Shown here in pieces: positions 1-38,993 of a stretch of 38,993 nt of DNA. Numbering within the stretch: position 1 is the stretch's first letter; every line of letters begins with the position of its first letter. This DNA is from a virus (taxonomy: Duplodnaviria > Caudoviricetes): positions 1-38,993 of the IMG/VR virus record IMGVR_UViG_3300032212_000066, one strand, 5' to 3'. The notes below the pieces were generated by a model. The model searched no databases. It had not been told where the DNA came from and worked only from the letters and a program-made list of their open reading frames with translations. The translations under genes and the position numbers were made by a program.

Positions 1-287
1 CGTGACGCCCAAGGGCTCATGCGTCTGGGTGATGATGCTTTCGGTGCGGTTGTGAACGATGTTGTTCCTGCCAATTTCGCGGCGATCGTTGGCCGTATTA
101 TCGAGGACCCGGCCGAGCAGGTTGCGGTGATCGAGCAGATCGCCCGCGCCGAGGTGCGCAATGCGATCGAGGCAGAGGCGTTGGTTCGCGGTGCCCAGGC
201 CGCCGGTTTTGCCCGGCGTGAGGGCGAGACTGGATCCCTGTTTGGGGACATTCCGACTGAAAGCCTGATCGCCGATCGGGCGCGGAT
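1..287. repeat. Terminal direct repeat (circular overlap), left copy
   Basis: 1-287 matches 38743-38993 base for base except that 127-162 (36 bp) is missing from the right copy; implies a circular or permuted 38,742-bp genome. Confidence 0.97.
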
Positions 288-1668
288 CCTCAGCCGGGCT
301 ATCTCTATCCTTCGCAAGGAAAAGGGTGTATTCACAACGCTCGCGCGTGAGGCTGACCGCATCGAGAATGCGGGCAATCGTCTGGCGCGCGACGCCAACC
401 AGGAAAGGGCAAGCACTGATGCCGCGCTCCTCGAGATCCTCCAAACGCTCGCCCACCGTGCCGGCCCCGTCGCCGACGCCCTCAACGCCCGCGTCCGAGA
501 CGCAAACGGAAACTTCGCCGCCGGAGCCCGCGCCTTCGTCGGAGATATCCGAGATCTCACGGCGTCGGGCGATCTCTCTCGGCTTCTCGATGGCGGAAGC
601 CGACGCGATGTTGACCCTGCAGCGTCGGGTGAACGCGGCGGCGATGCGCCGCTAGGCGCCGAGCCGGCGCCGCCGGAAAATCGACAAGCCAGGCCCGGCC
701 AGCCGGTCCGGCTCCAGGCGTTTCCGCGCCAGGAGCACAAGGCGCTTGAGCTCGAATTCATTTCAAGCCAAGCCGATCGTGTCAGTGTTGATGCGCTCCT
801 CGATGGGGCGGATGGCTTGCGTCTGGAGCTGGGAAGCCTGATCGACCGAGCTTTGCCGGATGGTGTCGAAATGGTGCTCGGGCCGGTCAAGGCCGCGGAT
901 CGGATCGTCCAGAAAATCGAAGATAAGGGCTATGCCGGCGCGGGCCGACTGACCGATGTGGTTCGCGCGGCAGTCCTGCCCCGGTCGGTTGAGGAGGCCG
1001 ACGTTTTTGTTGATGGATTGGCAGCGATCGCGCCGGTCTTTGATGAGGGTGTCGCCTTGAGACCGGGCGGATATGTTGACCGAAAAGTGCTTGTCCGTCT
1101 GGCTGACGGGCGGGTTGCCGAGATACAGCTGACGTCGCCGCAAATGTGGTCAGCCAAACGGGATAGAGGTGACGCGGCGTATCATGACTTTCGGGTCAGT
1201 GAGCCGGGGTCTGACGCGCGCCGCGTCGCGCAGGCCAAAATGGAAGAGATATTTGCTGGAGCCTTGGCCGCGTCAGATCAGTCCTGGGTGGGCGGGATTG
1301 CCGGTAGACCCGGGAATGCGGCTTCAAACTCACCGCGCGATATTTCTTCGCCGGACATTGCCCAAATGGCGGGGTCACGCGCCTCCCAGGCGCCGGATGC
1401 GTCCGAGAATACAAATCCTGCGCGCGGCGACACTTCCACCGCCGGCGTGCGTTCCCAGTCTATAAATCGCATGGGGGATACCTCCGCTTCTGATATAGGT
1501 GATGAGTTTCCCCTTGACAATCCCGAAACCGAAGAATTTCAGACTGGATTGATCTTTGAAGCTGGCGAGGGCCCGCGGCGTGAAACTGTAACTGCGGCAG
1601 ATGTAGAGGCCGAGATTGCTGCAGATGACGCGGCTGTCGAGAGATTGAGGGGCTGCGTTCCAAGATGA
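1..1668 (+). CDS. C-terminal part of a large internal virion (ejection/polyvalent) protein; contains a RelA/SpoT-like nucleotidyltransferase domain at ~730-1260
   Basis: In frame with the ORF starting at 37333 across the junction (38761 corresponds to 19; offset 1428 = 476 codons; total ~1025 aa). Synthetase-like motifs VKxxxRxxxK (886), LTDVVR (949), GGYVD (1066), AEIQL (1117). Lies among ejection-protein genes. Confidence 0.85.
   Translation, partial: RDAQGLMRLGDDAFGAVVNDVVPANFAAIVGRIIEDPAEQVAVIEQIARAEVRNAIEAEALVRGAQAAGFARREGETGSLFGDIPTESLIADRARILSRAISILRKEKGVFTTLAREADRIENAGNRLARDANQERASTDAALLEILQTLAHRAGPVADALNARVRDANGNFAAGARAFVGDIRDLTASGDLSRLLDGGSRRDVDPAASGERGGDAPLGAEPAPPENRQARPGQPVRLQAFPRQEHKALELEFISSQADRVSVDALLDGADGLRLELGSLIDRALPDGVEMVLGPVKAADRIVQKIEDKGYAGAGRLTDVVRAAVLPRSVEEADVFVDGLAAIAPVFDEGVALRPGGYVDRKVLVRLADGRVAEIQLTSPQMWSAKRDRGDAAYHDFRVSEPGSDARRVAQAKMEEIFAGALAASDQSWVGGIAGRPGNAASNSPRDISSPDIAQMAGSRASQAPDASENTNPARGDTSTAGVRSQSINRMGDTSASDIGDEFPLDNPETEEFQTGLIFEAGEGPRRETVTAADVEAEIAADDAAVERLRGCVPR
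419..655 (+). CDS. Possible overprinted +1-frame small protein (78 aa, Pro/Ser/Thr-rich with C-terminal helix)
   Basis: ATG at 419 preceded by AGGAAAGG (401-408); host-frame codon usage switches to CTC/GCC/GGA/CGA over ~421-600. Confidence 0.4.
   Translation: MPRSSRSSKRSPTVPAPSPTPSTPASETQTETSPPEPAPSSEISEISRRRAISLGFSMAEADAMLTLQRRVNAAAMRR
1278..1472 (-). CDS. Nested antisense 64-aa protein; candidate immunity/antitoxin for the adjacent RelA/SpoT-like domain
   Basis: MRFIDWERTPAV...EISRGEFEAAFPGLPAIP is aromatic-rich and looks globular; SD GGAGGT 7 nt before the ATG; own promoter; the sense frame here is low-complexity Ser/Ala/Asn linker. Confidence 0.75.
   Translation of the reverse strand: MRFIDWERTPAVEVSPRAGFVFSDASGAWEARDPAIWAMSGEEISRGEFEAAFPGLPAIPPTQD
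1480..1520 (-). promoter_or_regulatory. sigma70-like promoter and RBS of the nested antisense gene
   Basis: Minus strand TTGTCA (1520-1515), 17-nt spacer, TATATC (1497-1492), then GGAGGT (1485-1480). Confidence 0.7.
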
Positions 1669-4226
1669 GTTTTCGAGATTGTATCAGCAATGCTGAAAAT
1701 ACTGGTGATCTGGATCCGGAGCGTGCCCGCAAGATCCGAGATCTTCTCGATGAAGAAGTCGATGCCGCGCGATCTGAGTTCGGCGAGGATGCCGCGGAGG
1801 CAGAGGGCGCGAGGCGGGCATTCCAGCGCCTTGAAGCGGAGGCTGCGGAAAGTAAGCGCCGGCGGCGCCTGGCGATGGAGCGGGCGCGTGACGTGCGGCG
1901 GCGTGTGCTCCAGCGGCGCACATGGGACGGTAAGGCGGACCCCGCCGCAGCGGTTCCGGATCTGATCGAACACTTTGGGACGTCGCCGGATAGCTCTGTC
2001 TGGAGCCGCTACCGTGAAGTGCTGGGCCGAGCTCACTCGACCATGACTGACGTTGTTTTCACTTTTGAAAGGGATCTCGCGTCGAACACCCGCAATCGTG
2101 CGCAGCTCGATAACATGATCGATGAGCTCTATGGCGCCGATACTGGCGACGTGGCGGCGCGCCAGCTGGGCGAAGCCTGGAAGGAAGCTGCCGAGCAGCT
2201 GCGCCAGCGCTTCAACGCGGCCGGCGGCAATATCGCGTATCGCGATGATTGGGCGCTTCCGCAGGCCTGGGATCCGGTCGCGGTCGGCCGGGCGGGCTTT
2301 GATGCCTGGCGCGATGGGGTGTTGCCGCACCTGGACAGGGCGCGCATGACCGACTTTCTGACCGGGCGGCCGCTGTCGGATGAGCGTCTCGAGCGCATGA
2401 TGCGCGATGCCTACGATGCAATTGTGTCCGATGGCTGGAGCCGGCGGGAAGCCGACATGACCCAGGGCGGATCCAGTCTTGCGAACAGTCGCACGGAAAG
2501 CCGCTTCTTCATTTTCAAGGATGGTGCCGCCTATCGGGCTGTCCAGTCCTCTTACGGTAACTCTGACGCGTTCGGCGCGATGATGGAGCACATCGATCGC
2601 ATGTCACGCGAGATCGCGGCGATGGAGGTGCTCGGCCCCAATCCTGTTGCGATGCTGGGCTTTGCTGAAAAGCTGGCGATGAAGGAGGCGGCCGAGGGGC
2701 GGGCTGAGGCGACGACGCCGTTTGATCAGTTGACGGCCATGTTCGGCCGCTCCTCGGATGGGCCGCAATCACGGGTGAGAAGTCAGGGCCGCCTGGCCAA
2801 GAATATGCTGTCCTTGCATATGGGCGCGGCCTATAGTCCCGTTGATGCCAAGCTCGCGCGCACCGTGGGCTCCGTAACGCAGCTCGCCGTAGCATCGAAG
2901 CTCGGCGCCGCAACGCTGTCTGCGATCTCGGATCCGGTCTTTAAAAAGCTCAATCGCCGGTTCAATGGCCTGCCGGAGACGGGGGCGATCCGTGGAACCC
3001 TGCGCCTGTTCAGTCCGACCAATGCCGAAGACCGCCGTCTGGCTGTTCGGGCTGGCCTGGTCGCAGATGGGGCGGCTTCGGTGATGCAAGGGCAGGCTCG
3101 CTATGTTGGCGAGTTCCAGGCACATGCCTGGACGAAGCGTCTCGCTGATATCACGTTGCGCTTGTCCGGATTGTCGCCGCTGACACAGTTCGGCCGTTGG
3201 AGCTCTGGCGAGGAGTGGGGCGGGTACTTCGCCGATTTTGTCAGAGAAGGCACGCCGCTCGAGGATCTTCCGGCAGATTTCCGCGCAATGCTTGATCGTC
3301 ATGGCCTGGGCGGTGACGCCTGGGACGTGCTGCGCCGGGCCAAGTTGGACGAGCCCAAGCCGGGCGCCGCTTTTCTTCGTGCCAATGCGATCGAGGAAAC
3401 AGATCGGCCAGGCGCAACCGCGCTCGCCCGTCGATACCTCGAGGCTCTGAACACTGAGATGGCGTTTGAGACGCCTTCGGCCAGCTATCGCGGCCAGGCT
3501 TTCCTGACGGGTGAGGCGCGGCCTGGCACGTTCCTGGGAACGATCGCCAGGTCGGTCTCTATGTTCAAGTCTTTCCCTTTCACGGTTTTCTTCCTGGCAA
3601 CGGCTCGCTTGCGTCATTCGATGGTGGCCGGTCTCGGCGCGGGGCGTGGTGCAGGCGTGGCGGCCAGCTATGCGGGGATCTTCGCCAGTCGTTACCTAGT
3701 CTACCTCACGCTCGCCGGCGCTGTCAGTCTGCAGCTCAAGGAGATCTCGAAGGGCCGGGATCCTCGCCCCATGACCAGCGGCAAATTTTGGGGCGCCGCG
3801 GCCATGCAGGGCGGGGGGCTGGGGATCTTTGGCGATTACCTGTTCTCCGACCTGAACCGCTTCGGTGGCGGATTGCCGCAAACCGTCGCCGGCCCGATGT
3901 TGCAGACGGCCGGTGAAGCCCTGGATCTGACCGCGGGCAATGTGGCCCAGCTCGCTCAAGGCGAGGATACCAATGCCGCTGCCGAGGCTGTGAGCTTCGC
4001 ACGAAGAAATACGCCCGGCGCTTCAATCTGGTATCTGCGCCTGGCTACTGAGCGGATGCTGGTCGACGAGCTCGATCGGCTGGCAGATCCCGACGCCGAC
4101 GCCCGCTTTCGGCGGCAGATGCGCCGGTATGAGCGTGACTATGACCAATCCTATTGGTGGCGTCCGGGTGAGCGCTTGCCCGATCGCGCGCCGGATCTGG
4201 GCAATGCGGCGGCCCCGACTGAATAA
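1665..4226 (+). CDS. Large internal virion/ejection protein (853 aa)
   Basis: Long helical Ala/Arg-rich ORF with hydrophobic C-terminal segments, located between the ejection proteins and the tail fibre as in BPP-1/epsilon15-type podoviruses; ATGA overlap with the upstream gene. Confidence 0.75.
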   Translation: MSFRDCISNAENTGDLDPERARKIRDLLDEEVDAARSEFGEDAAEAEGARRAFQRLEAEAAESKRRRRLAMERARDVRRRVLQRRTWDGKADPAAAVPDLIEHFGTSPDSSVWSRYREVLGRAHSTMTDVVFTFERDLASNTRNRAQLDNMIDELYGADTGDVAARQLGEAWKEAAEQLRQRFNAAGGNIAYRDDWALPQAWDPVAVGRAGFDAWRDGVLPHLDRARMTDFLTGRPLSDERLERMMRDAYDAIVSDGWSRREADMTQGGSSLANSRTESRFFIFKDGAAYRAVQSSYGNSDAFGAMMEHIDRMSREIAAMEVLGPNPVAMLGFAEKLAMKEAAEGRAEATTPFDQLTAMFGRSSDGPQSRVRSQGRLAKNMLSLHMGAAYSPVDAKLARTVGSVTQLAVASKLGAATLSAISDPVFKKLNRRFNGLPETGAIRGTLRLFSPTNAEDRRLAVRAGLVADGAASVMQGQARYVGEFQAHAWTKRLADITLRLSGLSPLTQFGRWSSGEEWGGYFADFVREGTPLEDLPADFRAMLDRHGLGGDAWDVLRRAKLDEPKPGAAFLRANAIEETDRPGATALARRYLEALNTEMAFETPSASYRGQAFLTGEARPGTFLGTIARSVSMFKSFPFTVFFLATARLRHSMVAGLGAGRGAGVAASYAGIFASRYLVYLTLAGAVSLQLKEISKGRDPRPMTSGKFWGAAAMQGGGLGIFGDYLFSDLNRFGGGLPQTVAGPMLQTAGEALDLTAGNVAQLAQGEDTNAAAEAVSFARRNTPGASIWYLRLATERMLVDELDRLADPDADARFRRQMRRYERDYDQSYWWRPGERLPDRAPDLGNAAAPTE

Positions 4227-14944: not shown

Positions 14945-15073
14945 ATGACGACATGCATGATTGAGGTTCTGGCCGCGTTCTTTCTCGGCGCCGTATTTGG
15001 AACTGGCTTCGTGGTCGCCGGCTGTTGGGCATGCTTCCGCGCAGTGGCGAAGCGGTGGGGGGCTTCGTCGTGA
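14945..15073 (+). CDS. Small single-TM peptide (42 aa)
   Basis: RBS GAGGGA; VLAAFFLGAVFGTGFVVAG; GTGA overlap with the next gene. Confidence 0.5.
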   Translation: MTTCMIEVLAAFFLGAVFGTGFVVAGCWACFRAVAKRWGASS

Positions 15074-15879
15074 GTGTTCGACCGATCCGAGCCATATCGG
15101 CGCCAGGGCTCAGGCCGGCCGATATCTGCAAGCGGCCTGAATTGTGCTGGGTTGCCGTCGATCGCCTGGTCGTGAATGAGCGGTATCAGCGCGAGATCTC
15201 CGAGCGATCGGTAACGCTGATCCGGCGCATTGTGCAGAATTGGTCCTGGGATCGTGTTCGGCCGGCGGTCGTGGTGCGCTTGCCCGATGCGACCTTTGAA
15301 GTCCTGGACGGTCAGCACTTGGCTACGGCTGCCGCCACGCATGGCGGGGTCACGGAGATCCCGTGCCTCGTCCTTCCGCCAGTCTCGATCGAGGGAATGG
15401 CGGCGGCCTTCGTCGGTTTGAACCGGGACCGGGTTGGCATGACAAGCCAGCAGGTTTTCCGGGCCGAGCTCGAGGCTGGGGATCCGGTCTGTCTGGCGGT
15501 GCGCGATGGTGTTTTGTCTGGCGGTGGTGAGATCTTGTTGCGGCCGCCGGTGCGCGGTGAGTTCAAGATCGGGCAGACGATCGCGGTTGCCGCCCTCAAG
15601 GCGGTGGCGCGTGCCAAGGGCAAGGCCGGTGTGGCGCGCGTCGTTCGAGCGGGTATCGCGATGCGTCTGTCGCCGATTTCGGCCGCCTACGTCCAGGCTT
15701 TGCAGGCGTTGTTTTGGGCGCGCGAATATGCCGGTGAGCTCGAGGACGGCGCCTACACGGCTGCGGTACTACGGGCCGATCACCTCGCCCTGATCGATCG
15801 CGCAAAGGCGCGGGCCAAGGATCTGAAAATCACGAAGCACGCGGCGTTGTCGCAATTGATTTTCCAGGAGGCGTCATGA
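15070..15879 (+). CDS. ParB-like N-terminal domain protein (DUF6551-like)
   Basis: WVAVDRLVVNERYQR...FEVLDGQH..AA...IPC motif. Confidence 0.75.
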   Translation: MSVRPIRAISAPGLRPADICKRPELCWVAVDRLVVNERYQREISERSVTLIRRIVQNWSWDRVRPAVVVRLPDATFEVLDGQHLATAAATHGGVTEIPCLVLPPVSIEGMAAAFVGLNRDRVGMTSQQVFRAELEAGDPVCLAVRDGVLSGGGEILLRPPVRGEFKIGQTIAVAALKAVARAKGKAGVARVVRAGIAMRLSPISAAYVQALQALFWAREYAGELEDGAYTAAVLRADHLALIDRAKARAKDLKITKHAALSQLIFQEAS

Positions 15880-22015: not shown

Positions 22016-22366
22016 CTAGTCGGCGCTGTCGAAGTATTGCGGTTGACCGTTCCAGGCGCGCGCCAGGACCGAGACGGGACCCGGTGTCCGAACAGCGTCA
22101 GGGCTTTTCCGGCTGATGCGGGCCTCCAGCAATCCGGCCGGGCTCGGGTCCATGTAGTCGCCGGCTCGGGGAGTAACGCGGCCGTTCCATCCGGGGTCGC
22201 CGCTGATCTGCTGGCGCTTGAGTTCGCGCAGTTGGAAAATGGTGGATCCGCGCCGGCCGACAATCTCGAAGAATTGGACAATGATCATCGAGTATCCCCA
22301 GTTTGCGACCAGAACGTCGCCGACTTTGCAATCCTTGAGGGCGGGGGTTTTGGTGGTGGTGGTCAT
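22016..22366 (-). CDS. Conserved small mobile-element protein
   Basis: KVGDVLV..WGY....V.FFEIV motif; RBS GGAGG. Confidence 0.7.
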   Translation of the reverse strand: MTTTTKTPALKDCKVGDVLVANWGYSMIIVQFFEIVGRRGSTIFQLRELKRQQISGDPGWNGRVTPRAGDYMDPSPAGLLEARISRKSPDAVRTPGPVSVLARAWNGQPQYFDSAD

Positions 22367-22377
22367 TGGCGTTCCTC

Positions 22378-23223
22378 CTAGAACAACAGTTCGAGCTGTT
22401 GCGCGCTCGGGCGCTGGCGCTTCTCGGCGCCGGGGATGATGTATTGAAGGCCGGCCGGCGTGGCCTCGAGGCTGGGCGTGGGCGTCTCGGGCTGGGCGAG
22501 TTCTTTGATCGGCCGGCGGGTCATGCTCATCGTGTGCCCGACCTTTTCCTCGAGCTCTGCGTATTGCTCGAGGAGGGCCGGCTTGAGTTTTGCGGCTGTC
22601 TGGAGATCTGCCCGGCTGGACATGATGCAGAAGCAGCAGCTGAGGCGGCTCATGCCGGCGGCGTAAGCCTGGTGGGGTTGTTGGCCGGCGCTCTCGATCG
22701 CTGTAAAAACCGCGGCCTCGCTCCATTCAAAGATCGGATACCATTCCCACCATTCCCGGCCGGCCTTACTGTTGCGAAGGTCAAACTTGAGAGGGTTTTT
22801 CCGGGCTCGGCTTGAGCTTTCCTCCGCGCGGATCCCCATGCAGTTGACGATCCGGCCGGCGTGCTCCGGGTGGGCTTTTAGGTAGTTCCGGATCTCGCGG
22901 GCAATCGGGTCGCGCTTTAGGTCGCTTGTACATTGGCGTTGGCTGGGGCTGGGGAACATGCCGCGCCGCTCGACCATTTCAAAGAAGGTCTTGGCGGCCC
23001 GCGCCAGGATCAGGGGCTCTCCTGATGTGGTGGCCTCGATGTGTTCGACCAGGCCGGGCCAGTCGACCCCGGGCAGCTCAGCGTGAATGATCAGCAGTTG
23101 ATGGGTCGGCACGAGGTCCTTGAGGACCAGGTACATGGCTTGACTGTCTTTGCCGGCGGAGTGGTTACAGACAAAGAGCGCGCCTTGCTCAATGAGCTCC
23201 TGGATCTTGGGGGGTGTTTTCAT
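22378..23223 (-). CDS. PAPS-reductase-family (PP-loop, DndC-like) protein
   Basis: SAGKDS, CT..LK..PI, GIRAEES..RA and RLSCCFC motifs; RBS GGGAG. Confidence 0.88.
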   Translation of the reverse strand: MKTPPKIQELIEQGALFVCNHSAGKDSQAMYLVLKDLVPTHQLLIIHAELPGVDWPGLVEHIEATTSGEPLILARAAKTFFEMVERRGMFPSPSQRQCTSDLKRDPIAREIRNYLKAHPEHAGRIVNCMGIRAEESSSRARKNPLKFDLRNSKAGREWWEWYPIFEWSEAAVFTAIESAGQQPHQAYAAGMSRLSCCFCIMSSRADLQTAAKLKPALLEQYAELEEKVGHTMSMTRRPIKELAQPETPTPSLEATPAGLQYIIPGAEKRQRPSAQQLELLF

Positions 23224-26465: not shown

Positions 26466-26711
26466 GTGGGTAATCTTTTCAAGCCTGATTTGCCACCGCC
26501 GCCTGAGCCGGAGCTTGTGCCGCTGCCGAGCGATGGCAGGCGTGCGACTGACGCCGCGCGGCGCCGGCTTCGGCGCGGTGGGCGACAGTCCACGCTGTTG
26601 ATTGGTGGGCGCCAGGTGCAATCAACTACGGTTGCGCCGGCTGGTGGTGTTCAGGGGGGTACAACGACCGGTGGCCGGGTTGGCACGCTGTTGAGTGGGA
26701 TCCAGCCCTGA
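26466..26711 (+). CDS. Small Pro-rich virion-associated protein preceding portal
   Basis: GTG after GGAG; FKP..PPPP...GRQSTLL...TLL.G pattern typical at this locus. Confidence 0.7.
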   Translation: MGNLFKPDLPPPPEPELVPLPSDGRRATDAARRRLRRGGRQSTLLIGGRQVQSTTVAPAGGVQGGTTTGGRVGTLLSGIQP

Positions 26712-28335: not shown

Positions 28336-28776
28336 ATGGATCGTCCGCGGCAAGTGATCGATGGCTTCATGGCGCGCTTTGCGCGGCGCTGGAAACTGCG
28401 CGGAGATCTGTCCGGCGAGTTCGAGAGCGACCAGGCGCGTCAGCGCGCGTATGAGCGCACGTTTTTCGCCGATCGCGAGAGCGCGCTTGTCCTGGCCGAT
28501 ATCCTGCGCCGGGAAGGTCTGGCCTCGAATACCTTCGTGTTCGGGCCGGATGGCCGCGCGGATCTGACTGCCGCGGCTTACCGTGACGGCCGCCGTGCGA
28601 CGGCTCTGGAAATTCTCAAAATTGCGGGCTCGGATCCTGATGCTCTGGCCCGCGCGCTTGTGTTCGATGACCTCAAGGAGACGCGTGATGACCGAACAAT
28701 TGACCCCGCCGACCGAGACCCCGCCGACCGAGACCCCGCCGACCGGGACCCCGCCGACCGGGACCCCGCCGGTTGA
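28336..28776 (+). CDS. Bbp19-like protein
   Basis: Y..TF......VLADI...AYRDGRR...L.I pattern; follows the portal. Confidence 0.7.
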   Translation: MDRPRQVIDGFMARFARRWKLRGDLSGEFESDQARQRAYERTFFADRESALVLADILRREGLASNTFVFGPDGRADLTAAAYRDGRRATALEILKIAGSDPDALARALVFDDLKETRDDRTIDPADRDPADRDPADRDPADRDPAG

Positions 28777-29608
28777 CAATGGCCCGTCCTGGGCGAAGGA
28801 CGCCGAGATTTCGGCTTTCATGGAGCGCAATGGCTTCGGTGACGATCTCGAGAAGGCGCTCAAATCCGCCGTATCGATGGAAAAGAAGATCGGTGTTCCT
28901 CCGGAGCGCCTGGTCACTTTGCCGGAGCAGGGGCCCGATGCCGATCCGGAGGGCTGGAAAAATGTCATGGCGCGCATGGGCGTGCCGGATGCGGCCGATG
29001 ATTATGCCTTTTCAGCCGTCGCGATGGGCGAGGATGAAGGTGCGGCGCAGATCGAGATCTCGGACGATCAGGCCAAGCTGTTGCGTGAAGGCGCTCACGC
29101 GCTCGGTTTGACGCCTGCACAGGCACAGGGCGTGATCGAGAAGATGTATGCGCCGCTTTACGCCCAATCACTCGAGGCCAGTGCGCGCCAGGCCAGCGAG
29201 GCTGATCAAAAAGCGGCGGCGGCCACTGACGCGCTCAAGCGTGATTGGGGCGCAGCGTTCGACGAAAAGGTCGCGGCGGCTGATCAGGAGCTTGACCAGA
29301 TGGCGCAGGATTTTGACCTGGGCGACGGTTTCCGCGAGGCGCTCGAGCGGACGGGGTTTCATAATGAAGCCTGGTTTGTTCGTCTTCTGTCAGAGCGGTC
29401 TGAGGCGCGCCAAGAGCCCCGCGAATTACCCGGTGCGCGGGGCAATCGGCAATCGGCTGGCAAGCTGACGCCGGCAGAAATGCGGCATGATTTGAATGTC
29501 TTTGACGCCAAGCATGCCGAAGCTCTCGAGCAGGGTTCGCACCCGGACCACAAGTGGGCTGTCGCAGAGCGATTGAAGATCATTGGGTCGGGTGTTGCCA
29601 AGCGCTAG
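28688..29608 (+). CDS. Capsid scaffolding protein
   Basis: Acidic helical protein with GVPD..DDY, GLT.AQAQ, LK.DWG..FD and HPDH motifs; precedes the major capsid protein. Confidence 0.8.
   Translation: MTEQLTPPTETPPTETPPTGTPPTGTPPVDNGPSWAKDAEISAFMERNGFGDDLEKALKSAVSMEKKIGVPPERLVTLPEQGPDADPEGWKNVMARMGVPDAADDYAFSAVAMGEDEGAAQIEISDDQAKLLREGAHALGLTPAQAQGVIEKMYAPLYAQSLEASARQASEADQKAAAATDALKRDWGAAFDEKVAAADQELDQMAQDFDLGDGFREALERTGFHNEAWFVRLLSERSEARQEPRELPGARGNRQSAGKLTPAEMRHDLNVFDAKHAEALEQGSHPDHKWAVAERLKIIGSGVAKR
28702..28771 (+). repeat. 15-bp tandem repeat (4.7 copies) in a gene overlap
   Basis: GACCCCGCCGACCGR units at 28702, 28717, 28732, 28747 and partial 28762; reads DPADR in one frame and TPPTE/G in the other. 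Confidence 0.92.
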
Positions 29609-34457: not shown

Positions 34458-34848
34458 GCTGCGCCCATACCGCGCCGGTGATGCCTGGCTCGTTTCGTTG
34501 CGAGCGGAGCAGGCGGGAGACCGGATGAGCTTCTACGACACGGCCGAGGGGCCGGCGATGACGTTTGAGCGTGACGGCGCAGTCATTGCCTGTGCTGGCC
34601 TGGCGCGTGTGTGGGAGGGGCGCTTTCTCGCATGGGCCCTGTTCTCTGATCTCCAGCCTCGCGATTGGGTCGAGGTTCGCCGGGCCATGCAGCCGGTAAT
34701 CAAGGCCCAACGCGGCCGAATTGAAGCCACGGCCGCCTTTCCTGCGGCCGAGCGCTTTCTGGTCGGCCTTGGTTTTGAAAGGGAGGGGATCATGCGGTCC
34801 TACCATAACGGCCGAGATCACGCGCTTTACGCGCAGGTGAACCCATGA
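34450..34848 (+). CDS. GNAT-like virion assembly protein (T7 gp13-like position)
   Basis: AERFL..LGFEREG.MR.Y...D...YA motif; follows the nozzle. Confidence 0.7.
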   Translation: MSRLRPYRAGDAWLVSLRAEQAGDRMSFYDTAEGPAMTFERDGAVIACAGLARVWEGRFLAWALFSDLQPRDWVEVRRAMQPVIKAQRGRIEATAAFPAAERFLVGLGFEREGIMRSYHNGRDHALYAQVNP

Positions 34849-35285
34849 GCGGCGTCGGCGACATTGTTAGCGGCGTCGGTTCAATGATCGCCGGTGAAAG
34901 CGCCAATGCGATCGCCAGGAACCAGGCCGCTTTCATGGAGGCCGATGCTGCGGTGTCGCGCCAGGTCGGAGCGGCCCAGGCGGATATTGCGCGGCGCGAG
35001 GGCGCGCGCGCGGTTGGTGAAGCCGTGGCGCTGCAAGGCGCGTCCGGCTTTGCAATGGATGGATCTGCGCTGGACGTGATCGCTGAGATTGCCGGGTCTT
35101 ATGACTACCAGGCGCGGGTGGCGCGGTATGAGGCCGGCCGTCAAGCGCTGCGCCTCGAGAATGAGGCTGTGGTCACGCGAGCGGAGGGCAAGATGGCCCG
35201 TACCAGCGGCTATGTGCAGGGCTCCGCCTCATTGCTGACTGGCGCTGAAAAGATGGCGTCAAGCTCGGGTGGCGGAGGAGGTTAG
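34845..35285 (+). CDS. Small internal virion (ejection) protein
   Basis: Gly/Ala-rich with GASG....GSALDV motif. Confidence 0.75.
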   Translation: MSGVGDIVSGVGSMIAGESANAIARNQAAFMEADAAVSRQVGAAQADIARREGARAVGEAVALQGASGFAMDGSALDVIAEIAGSYDYQARVARYEAGRQALRLENEAVVTRAEGKMARTSGYVQGSASLLTGAEKMASSSGGGGG

Positions 35286-35287
35286 GG

Positions 35288-37333
35288 ATGCCAAGGATCA
35301 ACGCGAACCGAGCCGGGGTGCGTGGCCCGCGCCTGATTGGTGTGACGCCAAGCGCGCCGACTGCCCGCAATATGTTGGCGCCGATCGGGCAGGCGATTGA
35401 GGCGATCGCTGACGATCGGCGACGTGAGGCCGAAGAGGAGCGCGAGCGGGCTGACCGGATCGCGGTGGCCCGCGCGGAAAGCGCTTTCCTGCTGAATGTC
35501 GGTCGTGGCCTTGATGAGGCTGCGGAGGGCTATGACGGTGCCACAAACGGCTTCGCTGACAGCCAGGCGGAGCGCTATGACGCGGCGGTTGCCAGCGCCC
35601 TCGAGGCCGCGCCGGAGGGCATTCAGGGGCGCCTCGAGGAGCGTTTCGCTGGCCCCATGAGGGCGCGTCACCTCCTGGCCGCGATGGATATCGAGCGCAG
35701 CAAAACCGGGCGCTATGTCTATCAGGGTTTTCTCGATCACGTCGACGCGAGCGCCAACGCCGTCAATGGCGAGCCGGGCTTTTTCCCGGACGCGCTGGCG
35801 TCGATCGAGGACGCTGTGACGGCCCTGCCGGAGGAATTGCAGGCCGGGGCACGCGACGAAGCGATCGGCCAGGTTTCGCGGTCCTATGCCGAGGCGCGGT
35901 TGAATGCAGATGCGGCCGGTTTCCTGTCCGAGATCGAAGGCGGATCGCTTGATGCGATTTTTCCGGCAGAGGTTCGCCGGTCCTATGCCAGCCAGGCGCA
36001 AGCCGAGATGGATCGGCGGGAGCGGGCGGCCGCTGTCGAGGCGCGCCAGGCGGCGGCTGTCGAGGGGCGTGTGCTGGCGCGGATGCTCGACGATGCCGAG
36101 GACGCGGCCGAGCAGGGATTTTCGCCGGCTATTTCCTTTGAGGCGGTGGCCCAGCGCGCGGCGGCACTCGGCAATGAGGACGGCGCGGATCTCCAGCAGC
36201 GCGCGATCGAGGCCGCGTCGATCGCGCAGATGGGCGAGGAGCTGAGGGTTTTGCCGCTCGCTGATCTGGAGCAAAGGATTGTCGAGGAGCGGAGCCGGAT
36301 CCGCGAGGGCGCAAGTGGCTTTGAGGCGCGCCGGATCGCTGCGGCGGAACGGGTGTTGTCGACAATGCGCAGCGAGCTTTCGTCCGATCCGGTTGCCTAT
36401 GCGCGCCGGACTGGCGTCGGAGATCTGCCGGATCTCGACTTTTCATCGCTTGATGGCCTGGGGGGGAGCCTCGCCGATCGGGTGCCGCGCGCTCAAGCGG
36501 TGGCAGATCATTATGGTGTCGAGCGCCAGATCTTCACGGGTTCAGAGCGTCTTGCCCTGTCGGAAGCGGTATCACGCGGGGATCTGGATCGGGCGTCGGT
36601 CGCGCAATCGATTGTTGCCAGCCTCGGCCGTGACGCGCCCGCGGCGCTGCAGGAGATCGCGCCGGATGAGCCCCTGTTGGCAACGGTCGGCGGATTGATG
36701 ACGGCCGGAGCGCCTACGGCGGCGCGAGATCTGGCTCAGGGCTATCAGTTGCGGGACCAGGAAGGCTTTGCGTCCCGTCTGCCCTCGCGCTCGATCGTGC
36801 AGAGTGCAGCCGCGCCATTGCTAGGCGGGCTTGCTGAGCGTCTGCCAAATACGAGCCTCGAGCTGGTGGAGACAGCCTCTGCGATCTACGAGGCGCGTGC
36901 CTTGCGGACAGGCGTTGTTCAGGACGGCGAGGGGTGGCCCCGCCGTGGTGAGCGCATGTTCGAGCAGGCTTTGCATGAGGCTGCGGGCGCTGTTTTCGTC
37001 GGCGATCGTCGCTTCGGCGGGCTCGAGGAGCATCGTGGCGAAATGGTCATGCTGCCCAATTGGCTCTCGGAGGGGCGCTTGGATGACGTGATGCGCCTGA
37101 TCTCGGAGGGCGAGTTTGGGCCGCCTGGCGCCATGACGGACGCGAGGGGCAGCGAGTTGAGCGCCGGCGTTCTGCGCCGCGCGCGTCTGCAGTCTGTGGG
37201 CGATCAGCGCTATCTTGTCATTCCCGGCCGCGGCGATGGTGTCGCGCTGGATGATGCCGGGGCGCCGTTTGTTCTGGATCTGTCGGCCTATCGCAATGTC
37301 GTCAGTCGTGATTATCCCGATTGGGTGCGCTGA
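35288..37333 (+). CDS. Internal virion (ejection) protein
   Basis: MPRI start, 681-aa helical Ala-rich protein in the ejection-protein cluster. Confidence 0.75.
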   Translation: MPRINANRAGVRGPRLIGVTPSAPTARNMLAPIGQAIEAIADDRRREAEEERERADRIAVARAESAFLLNVGRGLDEAAEGYDGATNGFADSQAERYDAAVASALEAAPEGIQGRLEERFAGPMRARHLLAAMDIERSKTGRYVYQGFLDHVDASANAVNGEPGFFPDALASIEDAVTALPEELQAGARDEAIGQVSRSYAEARLNADAAGFLSEIEGGSLDAIFPAEVRRSYASQAQAEMDRRERAAAVEARQAAAVEGRVLARMLDDAEDAAEQGFSPAISFEAVAQRAAALGNEDGADLQQRAIEAASIAQMGEELRVLPLADLEQRIVEERSRIREGASGFEARRIAAAERVLSTMRSELSSDPVAYARRTGVGDLPDLDFSSLDGLGGSLADRVPRAQAVADHYGVERQIFTGSERLALSEAVSRGDLDRASVAQSIVASLGRDAPAALQEIAPDEPLLATVGGLMTAGAPTAARDLAQGYQLRDQEGFASRLPSRSIVQSAAAPLLGGLAERLPNTSLELVETASAIYEARALRTGVVQDGEGWPRRGERMFEQALHEAAGAVFVGDRRFGGLEEHRGEMVMLPNWLSEGRLDDVMRLISEGEFGPPGAMTDARGSELSAGVLRRARLQSVGDQRYLVIPGRGDGVALDDAGAPFVLDLSAYRNVVSRDYPDWVR

Positions 37334-38993
37334 TGCGGCCGATCTTTGAAACACCGCGCCTTGATGATCTCGAGCCGACCGAAGGCGCCCAGCGTGGTTT
37401 CTTCGGATCTGTCGCTGCAGGCTGGGAGGCGCAACGGTCCTTTGACAACTTCAATTCCGAGGCGTTTCTGCGCGACCGGGTTTGGCGCGATTACATCGAT
37501 GAGATTGAGCTGCGCAGTGGCGACCGCTTGCCGCATCCCGACGACTTTATTCCTGAGATCGATCTGCCAATCATGCTGGGCGCCAGTGATGAGGACGGTG
37601 GGGGTGTCGCGGGCGCGAAGGCGCGGTTTGTCCTGGCGCGCATCGAGGAGCTCCGCGACCAAAACCCTGAGCTGAATATTCCCGGGCCAGAATGGATGGC
37701 TGAGCGGCTGATGGCCGAAGCCGATCGGGTGGAAGTGGAAGAAAGTCGATCTGGCGGGGCCGGTCTTTTTTTCGGGCGGCTCGGCGCAGCTTTCACGGAT
37801 CCTGCAACGATCGTGACCGCGCCGGTCGGAGGTGGGCAGAAAACCGTGTTGCGGGCGGCCGGCGTTGAGGCAGCCGTCAATGGCCTGCTTGAGATGGCCA
37901 ATATCCCGGTTGCAAACCGCTGGCGCGAGGAGCTCGGCGTTGACACGATGACCCTCGAGGAAGGCGCGCAAAGTGTAGCGATCGCAATGGTGGCGGGCGG
38001 CATTCTGGGTGGAGCGGGCCGCTTTGCTGAAACTGAGCTACCGCGGGCGTTCAACCGTTTGTCCAATTCACGTCTGGCGGCTGCGCTGCGGGATCTGTCC
38101 GGTGGGAACCCGGAGCGCCTGGAGCTGGCCGAGGCCCTGGCGCGCGAGGCGGAGGTTGAGGGGCAAAACCCGTTCCCGCCAAGTGGTGCGGATCTTCATG
38201 AGGCGCGCTTGCAGGACGCGATGACGGCGATCACAGAGACGGATGCGGCTCGAGCGGGCGCTGCGATGGAGCGCCTTCTCGAGGACGTGCCGCCGCCGGC
38301 GGCGGGGTCTGCCGCTTTGCCGTCTGGGCTTACTGAAATTGATCCGCGAACGCTCGAGGTCGACGCGGCCCGCTTTCAGTTCAAGGACGGCGGGGACAGT
38401 GAGGGTGTGACCGATCGGCTGGCCGGTGTCAGTGAATGGGATCCGGTGCGTGCGGGGATCTCGCTCGTCTTCGAGCAGGAGGACGGCGCGCGCTTTATCG
38501 TTGATGGGCACCAACGTCGGGGGCTGGCGGCCCGCCTCCTCGAGGAGGATCCGGATGCCAATATTCGATTGACGGCCTTCGTCTACCGCGAGGCCGATGG
38601 ATGGGCGGATGCCGAGATCCGCGCGATCGCGGCGGCGAAGAACCTGGCCGAAGGCACAGGAACGGCGATCGATGCTGCCAAGATCCTGCGCGCGGATCCG
38701 GATCTCCTGGATGGCTCCCTCCCCACGCGCGGAGCGCTGATCCGTGACGCCCAAGGGCTCATGCGTCTGGGTGATGATGCTTTCGGTGCGGTTGTGAACG
38801 ATGTTGTTCCTGCCAATTTCGCGGCGATCGTTGGCCGTATTATCGAGGACCCGGCCGAGCAGGTTGCGGCGATCGAGGCAGAGGCGTTGGTTCGCGGTGC
38901 CCAGGCCGCCGGTTTTGCCCGGCGTGAGGGCGAGACTGGATCCCTGTTTGGGGACATTCCGACTGAAAGCCTGATCGCCGATCGGGCGCGGAT
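37333..38993 (+). CDS. N-terminal part of the junction-spanning ejection/polyvalent protein, with a ParB-like domain
   Basis: TGATG-coupled ATG at 37333, open to the contig end (absent from the ORF track because it has no stop); DAARFQFK...FIVDGHQR (38494)...AAKNLAEG ParB-like motifs. Confidence 0.85.
   Translation, partial: MRPIFETPRLDDLEPTEGAQRGFFGSVAAGWEAQRSFDNFNSEAFLRDRVWRDYIDEIELRSGDRLPHPDDFIPEIDLPIMLGASDEDGGGVAGAKARFVLARIEELRDQNPELNIPGPEWMAERLMAEADRVEVEESRSGGAGLFFGRLGAAFTDPATIVTAPVGGGQKTVLRAAGVEAAVNGLLEMANIPVANRWREELGVDTMTLEEGAQSVAIAMVAGGILGGAGRFAETELPRAFNRLSNSRLAAALRDLSGGNPERLELAEALAREAEVEGQNPFPPSGADLHEARLQDAMTAITETDAARAGAAMERLLEDVPPPAAGSAALPSGLTEIDPRTLEVDAARFQFKDGGDSEGVTDRLAGVSEWDPVRAGISLVFEQEDGARFIVDGHQRRGLAARLLEEDPDANIRLTAFVYREADGWADAEIRAIAAAKNLAEGTGTAIDAAKILRADPDLLDGSLPTRGALIRDAQGLMRLGDDAFGAVVNDVVPANFAAIVGRIIEDPAEQVAAIEAEALVRGAQAAGFARREGETGSLFGDIPTESLIADRAR
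38743..38993. repeat. Terminal direct repeat, right copy (36-bp in-frame deletion variant)
   Basis: Matches 1-126 followed by 163-287. Confidence 0.97.

Follow-up and report, generated by a model that had tools for sequence, protein, structure and literature searches.

The window analysed here is the whole of the IMG/VR record IMGVR_UViG_3300032212_000066 (38,993 nucleotides; Duplodnaviria, Caudoviricetes), a complete circular virus record of 38.7 kb that encodes a temperate short-tailed phage (podophage) with integrase, repressor, terminase, portal, capsid, two tail tube genes, internal virion genes and a tail fibre. One gene crosses the ends of the record and occupies the place of gp16 in phage epsilon15, between a gp15-slot gene and a gp17-like gene and after the tail tube genes. 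It encodes a 1025-residue protein with an internal alarmone synthetase domain of the Tas1/Apk1 kind (below, Apk), and a short antisense gene, predicted to encode an immunity protein, is nested in the same DNA (Table 1).

An earlier interpretation of the letters alone (the sequence-only reading) had proposed that a single frame runs across the junction and encodes a polyvalent ejection protein combining ParB-like and RelA/SpoT-like domains. The frame was borne out, being free of stops over its 1025 codons. The ends of the record overlap, bases 1–287 corresponding to 38743–38993 (287 versus 251 bases), and 36 bases (127–162) are absent from the end copy at 38868–38869, a deletion flanked by imperfect 9-base repeats; because the end copy lacks these bases, the joint chosen earlier was the correct one. 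The 36 bases are present in contigs from two sequencing runs, X1 (a microbial mat metagenome, possibly the source) and X3 (an isolate run, with four synonymous changes there), and the 12 residues that they encode are kept in all five aligned close orthologues. The X3 contig (38,243 bases; 223 differences from the window over 3,602 bases) crosses the junction, with window base 38993 at contig base 28464 and window base 600 at 28777, exactly colinear, which upholds circular continuity. A database protein from another assembly, P0004 (1013 residues), was called as one gene and carries both the 36-base deletion and an H393R change in the ParB motif; since the orthologues and both runs keep the residues, and given this combination in P0004, the deleted form is an assembly error or a rare variant. 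Its interpretation as a functional allele was rejected, the deletion being found in neither run.

Table 1 Features of the gp16-slot locus and its neighbours (positions in the window)
Feature	Position	Strand	Remarks
gp14-like internal virion protein	34845-35285	+	upstream ejection cluster
gp15-slot protein	35288-37333	+	upstream ejection cluster
gp16-slot ejection protein gene, first 470 codons	37333..38742	+	continues at base 1
N-terminal Gly/Ala-rich ejection-protein domain	37333..38292	+	homologous to Vibrio phage VP2 p18, profile E 3e-19
ParB/Srx-like domain (lead), aa 331-459	38323..38712	+	motif conservation, DGHQR at 38503-38517; Atlas lead
gp16-slot ejection protein gene, last 555 codons and stop	1..1668	+	same frame as 37333..38742
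Helical scaffold domain	1..576	+	after ParB, starts at 38713; contains the 36 bases 127-162
Exchangeable cassette	656..1535	+	left edge at 655/656 (contigs); right edge estimated by aligning proteins
Tas1/Apk1-like alarmone synthetase domain, aa 704-903	700..1299	+	K767, D789, R792, Y828, K832, E844, Q846, Y864
Nested antisense gene, 64 aa, predicted immunity protein	1278..1472	-	conservation, signals, complex model
Shine-Dalgarno GGAGGT, 7 bases before nested ATG	1480..1485	-	sequence
Promoter-like TTGTCA-17-TATATC for nested gene	1492..1520	-	fails strict scan
Acidic conserved C-terminal tail with only Cys, C1022 (1654-1656)	1536..1668	+	conservation
epsilon15 gp17-like virion protein, only Cys C6 (1680-1682)	1665..4226	+	predicted disulfide partner of C1022

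The nucleotidyltransferase motifs reported earlier are all present in the synthetase domain (K767..R771..K775, D789VVR, G827Y828xD830 and E844IQ), as is the replacement of the distal histidine, the segment reading G860DAAY864. The fold search that had been suggested as a check returned only RelA/SpoT homologue (RSH) synthetases as top matches of the predicted structure, which has a Pol-beta-type SYNTH fold (pLDDT 96.9). The best match was Tas1 (Foldseek E 4.4e-8; VIA Z 14.9, rmsd 3.1, 164 aligned), followed by SaEAS, RelP and RelQ. A family profile likewise retrieved Tas1 (E 2.8e-21), then SaSAS/SaEAS (E 1.7e-6), and no other RSH (RelP, RelQ, Rel) up to E 1, and residues K767, K775, D789, R792, Y828, E844 and Q846 align with catalytic, ATP-binding or acceptor-loop residues of Tas1. 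The relatives of the domain form 533 clusters (50% clustering, E≤0.001), which with the fold prediction places the motifs beyond chance; among the 150 matches listed, 86 carry the same N-terminal domain (reversed controls: 1) and 41 a ParB domain. The subfamily is without a Pfam model, none of 42 members matching PF04607; cultured phage records held no member at E≤0.01, and a locus search with the synthetase alone gave no match. A different, PF04607-matching RelA/SpoT domain was seen ahead of the ParB domain in P0020, P0022 and P0027, a second independent acquisition.

Of the 26 columns that are at least 80% conserved in a set of 162 domains, the window matches 24, an agreement favoured by the set having been gathered with the window as query. 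The Syn3 signature of the family is GYxDRK (D in 160, R in 145 and K in 153 of the 162). Position 861 is His in 113 domains and T (14), Q (11), D (8) or E (8) in others, and the His of GHxLY is also absent from the two closest relatives of the window; as residue 861 varies across the family, GDAAY is not a sign of decay.

The nested antisense frame, which lies opposite the S/T/P-rich linker behind the synthetase, is almost certainly a real gene. An open reading frame (ORF) of 64–86 residues in the same phase occurs in 28 of 29 Apk loci, the exception being almost devoid of the linker. With a strict ribosome site, it is found in 25 of 28 Apk loci, compared to 0/68 non-Apk loci (Zeta 0/25, empty 0/11, other 0/2, without ParB 0/30) and 0/78 gp17 windows. 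When the Apk domains were grouped at 60% identity into 11 clusters, including that of the window, ten of the clusters had the nested ORF, and a promoter-like site agreeing at 9 or more of 12 positions was present in 19/26 Apk loci versus 1/37 Zeta or empty loci. A profile of 18 nested ORFs, built without that of the window, ranked the window ORF first among 736 six-frame segments (E 1.9e-5; next 0.003), and a sense-frame profile of the same DNA did not find the sense linker. Codon changes that alter the amino acid were compared with silent ones in seven close pairs; the ratio was lowest in the nested region (0.29, against 0.39 in the synthetase and 0.86 in the tail), but it does not separate the two frames, which have their third positions in common. 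Ten homologues of the nested protein have been called as genes elsewhere, one of them as a hypothetical protein of Phycobacter, and at least 100 residues follow the synthetase in 98 of 99 Cys-tailed family members. The literature listings searched for a nested or antisense immunity gene in such proteins gave no report of one overprinted on the opposite strand of a toxin gene of the virion.

Structure prediction points to a role for this protein. A complex model of the synthetase and the nested protein scored 0.90, against 0.00 for the best of three controls (the mark for this score is reached by 116 of 157 solved pairs and by 2 of 215 mismatched pairs), and the model runs agree in at least 98% of contacts with a partner pLDDT of at least 90. 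The modelled interface comprises residues 778–783, 822–828 (the loop with Y828), K832 and Y864, and the donor-site and catalytic residues K767, D789, R792 and E844 are absent from it. The model supports binding of the nested protein to the acceptor site of the synthetase. PMC11782079 links acceptor-site blocking of the Tis1 kind to the synthesis of (pp)pApp, and links tRNA targets to pZFD antitoxins with YXXY, which block the donor site. The products proposed in the sequence-only reading were (p)ppGpp, (p)ppApp or pyrophosphorylated tRNA; the domain can now be narrowed to the Tas1/Apk1 kind, and a nucleotide acceptor is preferred over tRNA mainly because the nested protein is modelled on the acceptor loop, as in Tis1. 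Pyrophosphorylation of the tRNA CCA end, as by FaRel2, PhRel and CapRel, would agree with the shared fold (CapRel Z 10.8, FaRel-type 8pu1 Z 7.2), but a protein without a single Tyr, modelled at the acceptor loop, is so unlike the YXXY-bearing, donor-site-blocking partners of such toxins that we regard this function as very improbable.

The same data bear on whether the domain in the window might have lost its activity through decay, with the antisense ORF no more than a by-product of the sense frame. Several residues off the family majority would fit such decay, and the third codon positions shared by the two frames make an open antisense frame cheap. The intact catalytic residues and the specificity of the complex model, together with the association of ribosome site and promoter-like site with Apk cassettes and the protein-level similarity in the antisense frame, make this explanation scarcely credible.

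Synthetase and nested gene together lie in a segment that is exchanged between phages. A minor contig of X1 (depth 9 versus 30) and the X3 phage both diverge from the window at base 655, their letters there being almost identical to each other, and hand translation of the 30-base loose ends continues like P0011, a protein about 90% identical in the scaffold that has a Zeta-toxin domain and rejoins the same C-terminal tail. The replacement cassette in both therefore reads as a putative Zeta kinase; a search for the P0011 locus in metagenomes gave no match. Over 35200–38993 and 600–655, contigs of run X1 reveal a second, related phage in the same sample (about 86% identity, depth 6–9) that apparently carries Zeta. 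Of 65 orthologues with a ParB domain, 28 have Apk in the slot, 24 have Zeta, 11 are empty and two have other content; Apk and Zeta never occur together. In a quick scaffold tree of 68 rows, the starred branches require at least eight changes for Apk and at least nine for Zeta, near-identical scaffolds carry different cassettes, and the nearest neighbours of the window, P0007 and P0008, have an empty slot. Other orthologues contain PBECR, ART, GNAT or lysozyme domains. The literature covered, in which no search was aimed at exchange, held no mention of an Apk/Zeta exchange. Nine of the 24 Zeta cassettes, forming one close group (L013:7622, L016-L020, L035, L040 and L046, + strand), possess, after the Zeta domain and in the +1 sense frame, an ORF of 61–67 residues that has a ribosome site and is possibly a hidden antitoxin of that cassette.

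This distribution could also suit a selfish or lysogen-acting toxin-antitoxin passenger, lodged in a tolerant loop of an ejection protein and acting when expressed in the cell (in prophage maintenance or in defence against other phages), with injection incidental or falling short of the cytoplasm. The cassette is dispensable, as 11 of the 65 orthologues, including P0007 and P0008, are empty, and lysozymes, which act in the periplasm, occupy the same slot region in other phages. However, no start of its own was found for the toxin, which is always in frame with the virion protein and the Cys tail, and the slot has repeatedly been refilled with enzymes acting in the cytoplasm (Apk, Zeta, PBECR, ART, GNAT). 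We consider the passenger explanation quite unlikely.

Genes neighbouring that of the carrier match epsilon15 gp12, gp14 and gp17, and the N-terminal profile retrieved SI2 orf8 (E 4e-76) in addition to VP2 p18, a same-slot protein that in turn matches phrog_342, an internal virion protein (E 2.2e-10). Several unrelated effector domains are joined within one late phage protein, as in the polyvalent proteins of Iyer et al. 2017. Of the earlier description as a polyvalent ejection protein, the position in an ejection cluster and the polyvalent layout both hold, while delivery is treated below as a predicted step. The ParB-like domain fared less well: the DGHQR motif is present (residues 391–395) and nearly invariant (motif residues in 134–136 of 138 rows), and the ParB/Srx assignment itself is a lead, drawn from an Atlas match to ParB_N on orthologue P0008 (0.93, with only 121 shared features). 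The region had no Pfam or PDB match, and the DdrB-like ParB family PF18763 was not matched (E≤0.1 for the window, E≤0.05 for orthologues). A second, stand-alone ParB-like gene lies in the early region (15025–15876, + strand) and is not detectably alike to the ejection-protein domain (hhalign probability 0.1). A match of the ParB region to the 'portal' family phrog_21 was disregarded, the true portal gene lying at 26711. The gp15-like, gp17-like, scaffold and ParB sequences retrieved nothing from the PDB; neither half of the 1025-residue protein matched Pfam, which returned no PAAR or MuF domain; a single-sequence AlphaFold model of P0004 (pLDDT 39.5) was not usable; and a locus search in genomes with the N-terminal half gave no match. 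The available parts of three papers on ejection proteins (PMC8954989, PMC5850374 and PMC4802629) do not treat the gp16 slot directly. The virus named Dunaliella viridis virus SI2 (L001, HQ332136.1) has the same ejection cluster with an empty slot and resembles a bacterial podophage.

Both the 1025-residue protein and the following gp17-like protein contain a single Cys, C1022 and C6, respectively. The same single-Cys pair is found in epsilon15, VP2, BcepC6B and SI2, and in none of the fused giants examined. Loci fetched with the gp17 alignment numbered 107. Six of them were excluded because they were cut, fused or lacked an identifiable upstream frame, and both Cys are kept in 97 of the remaining 101. 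A Cys lies within the last 15 residues in 74 of 76 synthetase matches shorter than 1800 residues with the N-terminal domain, and only four Cys occur elsewhere in their 87,356 residues. The pair was observed across L001, L009-L011, L012-L116 and L119, which comprise epsilon15-, VP2- and BcepC6B-type phages. An exceptional 1506-residue orthologue (L005:357-4877) has an Apk domain, a nested antisense ORF (4639–4397) and the terminal Cys, and no gp17 match was found in its complete record.

A solved counterpart exists in cyanophage A4, whose capsid contains a five-copy ring in which C1715, the only Cys of gp27 (1717 residues), forms a disulfide with C5 of gp26; the two proteins are encoded in a four-gene ejection cluster (PMC12002296). 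The A4 pair and epsilon15 gp16/gp17 share the gene slot and the arrangement of an only Cys 3–7 residues from the C-terminus followed by an only Cys at position 5–6 of the next protein. They differ in other respects, as homology of the A4 proteins to those of the window was not detected by sequence, and epsilon15 gp16 and VP2 p18 are without the ParB and synthetase domains. Packaging and a disulfide latch are for this reason proposed by analogy, and a C1022–C6 disulfide is predicted from co-conservation and the A4 structure. In a literature search for this disulfide, a description was met for A4 alone. The C-terminus of A4 gp27 (L119:20116-25269) matches the PHROG for a ParB-like nuclease, and visual inspection of gp27 shows ParB-like and ART-like motifs; this protein may be a cargo carrier as well.

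Taken together, the overall best explanation, to which we assign a probability of about 0.6, is an ejection protein with a swappable (p)ppApp-synthetase cassette and an antisense immunity gene, all roles being predicted. What the analysis establishes is the frame, the fold, the catalytic residues, the edge of the cassette, the conservation and signals of the nested gene and the joint conservation of the two Cys; the steps that follow are predicted. The gp16-slot protein would very probably be packaged at low copy number next to the gp17-like protein, the C1022–C6 disulfide holding the two together, and the enzyme would probably enter the cytoplasm at infection. There it would pyrophosphorylate adenosine nucleotides to (p)ppApp and consume the ATP of the new host; ATP/ADP are the likelier acceptors, GTP or both are less likely, and tRNA is improbable. 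Apk1 reportedly turns over about 180,000 times per minute (PMC12691689), so few injected copies could matter if the enzyme is similar. Such a pulse might weaken host defence, punish cells that destroy the DNA or shift the choice between lysis and lysogeny, the last being a bias that the sequence-only reading had proposed. A promoter of its own would drive the nested gene separately from the late operon, and the encoded protein would very likely plug the acceptor loop. The antidote would protect the virion-building cell and the lysogen, and in a newly infected cell it would stop the short ATP drain after DNA entry and expression. Nesting would allow toxin and antidote to be swapped as one block and leave the translationally coupled structural operon intact.

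Several observations weigh against this explanation. On the side of delivery, neither a protease site nor a way into the cytoplasm came to light (polyvalent proteins commonly, though not always, have an MPTase for self-processing, at which no search was aimed), the N-terminal profile did not match epsilon15 gp16 significantly (E 0.059), and no sequence homology was detected to A4 gp27/gp26. As regards the antidote, many Apk loci are near-copies, the nested protein has no sequence match to Tis1 or Pfam, and the complex score may reflect memory of the solved Tas1–Tis1 pair; the promoter pattern was chosen after inspecting sequences, and a strict scan finds none in the window. The codon counts of the two frames (176/81 versus 177/80) cannot separate them, because the nested and sense frames share third codon positions. 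For the enzyme, the window does not follow most of the family at W821, W848, H861, L863 and Y888, RelP (Z 13.6) follows closely behind Tas1 in the fold search, and Syn3 is neither the GxN of Apk nor the SxH of RSH (PMC12226406). Sequence alone leaves the acceptor unfixed, since the related exported enzymes VpEAS and AaEAS make ppGpp and SaEAS, the second profile match, makes both alarmones (PMC12691689). The same cassette and antidote could hence carry an enzyme whose products are (p)ppGpp or both alarmones and which acts by reprogramming transcription in the host instead of draining ATP. This is unlikely, as Tas1 is the closest match by both sequence and fold, the RSH SxH is absent and PF04607 is matched by none of 42 members, and (p)ppApp synthesis is retained as the preferred activity.

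Parts of this arrangement have precedents. The closest is the Tas1/Apk1–Tis1 pair of the Pseudomonas aeruginosa T6SS (PDB 6OX6), which shares with the window the best sequence and fold match, the catalytic D, R, E and Q, the acceptor-loop Tyr and a small partner at the acceptor site (predicted in the window). In contrast, the window carrier is a phage ejection protein and not a PAAR protein, Syn3 is DRK and not GxN, and the predicted immunity gene lies on the opposite strand inside the toxin gene, its product having no detectable resemblance to Tis1 in sequence. The MuF toxins of the Apk2-IapK-Aph1 type (PMC10083569, PMC12226406) are likewise fusions to a virion protein of temperate phages with a variable toxin slot and cognate immunity. 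In the window, MuF is lacking, the toxin is internal and precedes a conserved Cys tail, immunity is overprinted and not downstream, and no Aph1-type hydrolase or other HD family was found among the ORFs scanned, the small ORFs having been scanned in part. Housekeeping small alarmone synthetases such as RelP and RelQ differ by the Syn3 SxH and the PF04607 match that the window lacks, and the tRNA-targeting toxic synthetases (toxSAS: FaRel2, PhRel and CapRel) differ in that the window partner, having no Tyr, has no YXXY and leaves the donor-site residues outside the modelled interface.

Already known, then, are ParB and RelA/SpoT domains in phage polyvalent proteins (PMC5512222) and MuF-borne Apk2 with downstream immunity (PMC10083569). 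Iyer et al. 2017 (PMC5512222) describe DdrB-ParB and RelA/SpoT domains in one late virion-associated protein with mosaic architectures, as in the window, whose ParB-like domain differs in having no PF18763 match; the available part of that paper places RelA/SpoT in spirochaete and epsilonproteobacterial prophages and mentions neither an immunity gene nor an Apk/Zeta exchange. Members of the family may already figure among the sequences listed with PMC5512222 and PMC12691689. The sequence-only reading had noticed neither the exchange of cassettes nor the nested gene, nor the paired Cys residues.

The closest genome match of the gp17-like gene is a Maricaulis assembly (49%), which suggests an alphaproteobacterial host. 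Elsewhere in the window, before the terminase, a PAPS-reductase-family gene and an unknown gene downstream of it (22019–23223, - strand) are possibly a DNA-modification module.

A broader reading joins all of these elements and is, as a whole, doubtful: an injected, ATP-draining synthetase whose sole antidote lies antisense within the toxin gene would constitute a widespread toxin-antidote lever acting at the moment of infection. A host whose restriction or CRISPR systems degrade the entering DNA would then be poisoned, and one that accepts this DNA would be cured, as would a lysogen already carrying the same cassette; the payload would toggle between Apk and Zeta types, each with its hidden antidote, and the disulfide latch would fix the carrier in the ejection core.

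Why toxins are fused to virion proteins in temperate phages is still open according to the available parts of the MuF-toxin papers (PMC10083569, PMC12226406). Near-identical phages that differ only in the cassette (Apk, Zeta or empty), together with a separable 64-residue likely antidote, offer a clean test of such fusions. The C-terminal/N-terminal Cys pair provides a simple marker for this type of ejectosome. Finally, these predicted immunity genes are mostly overlooked by annotation, and long S/T/P-rich 'linkers' behind phage toxin domains may be antisense genes.

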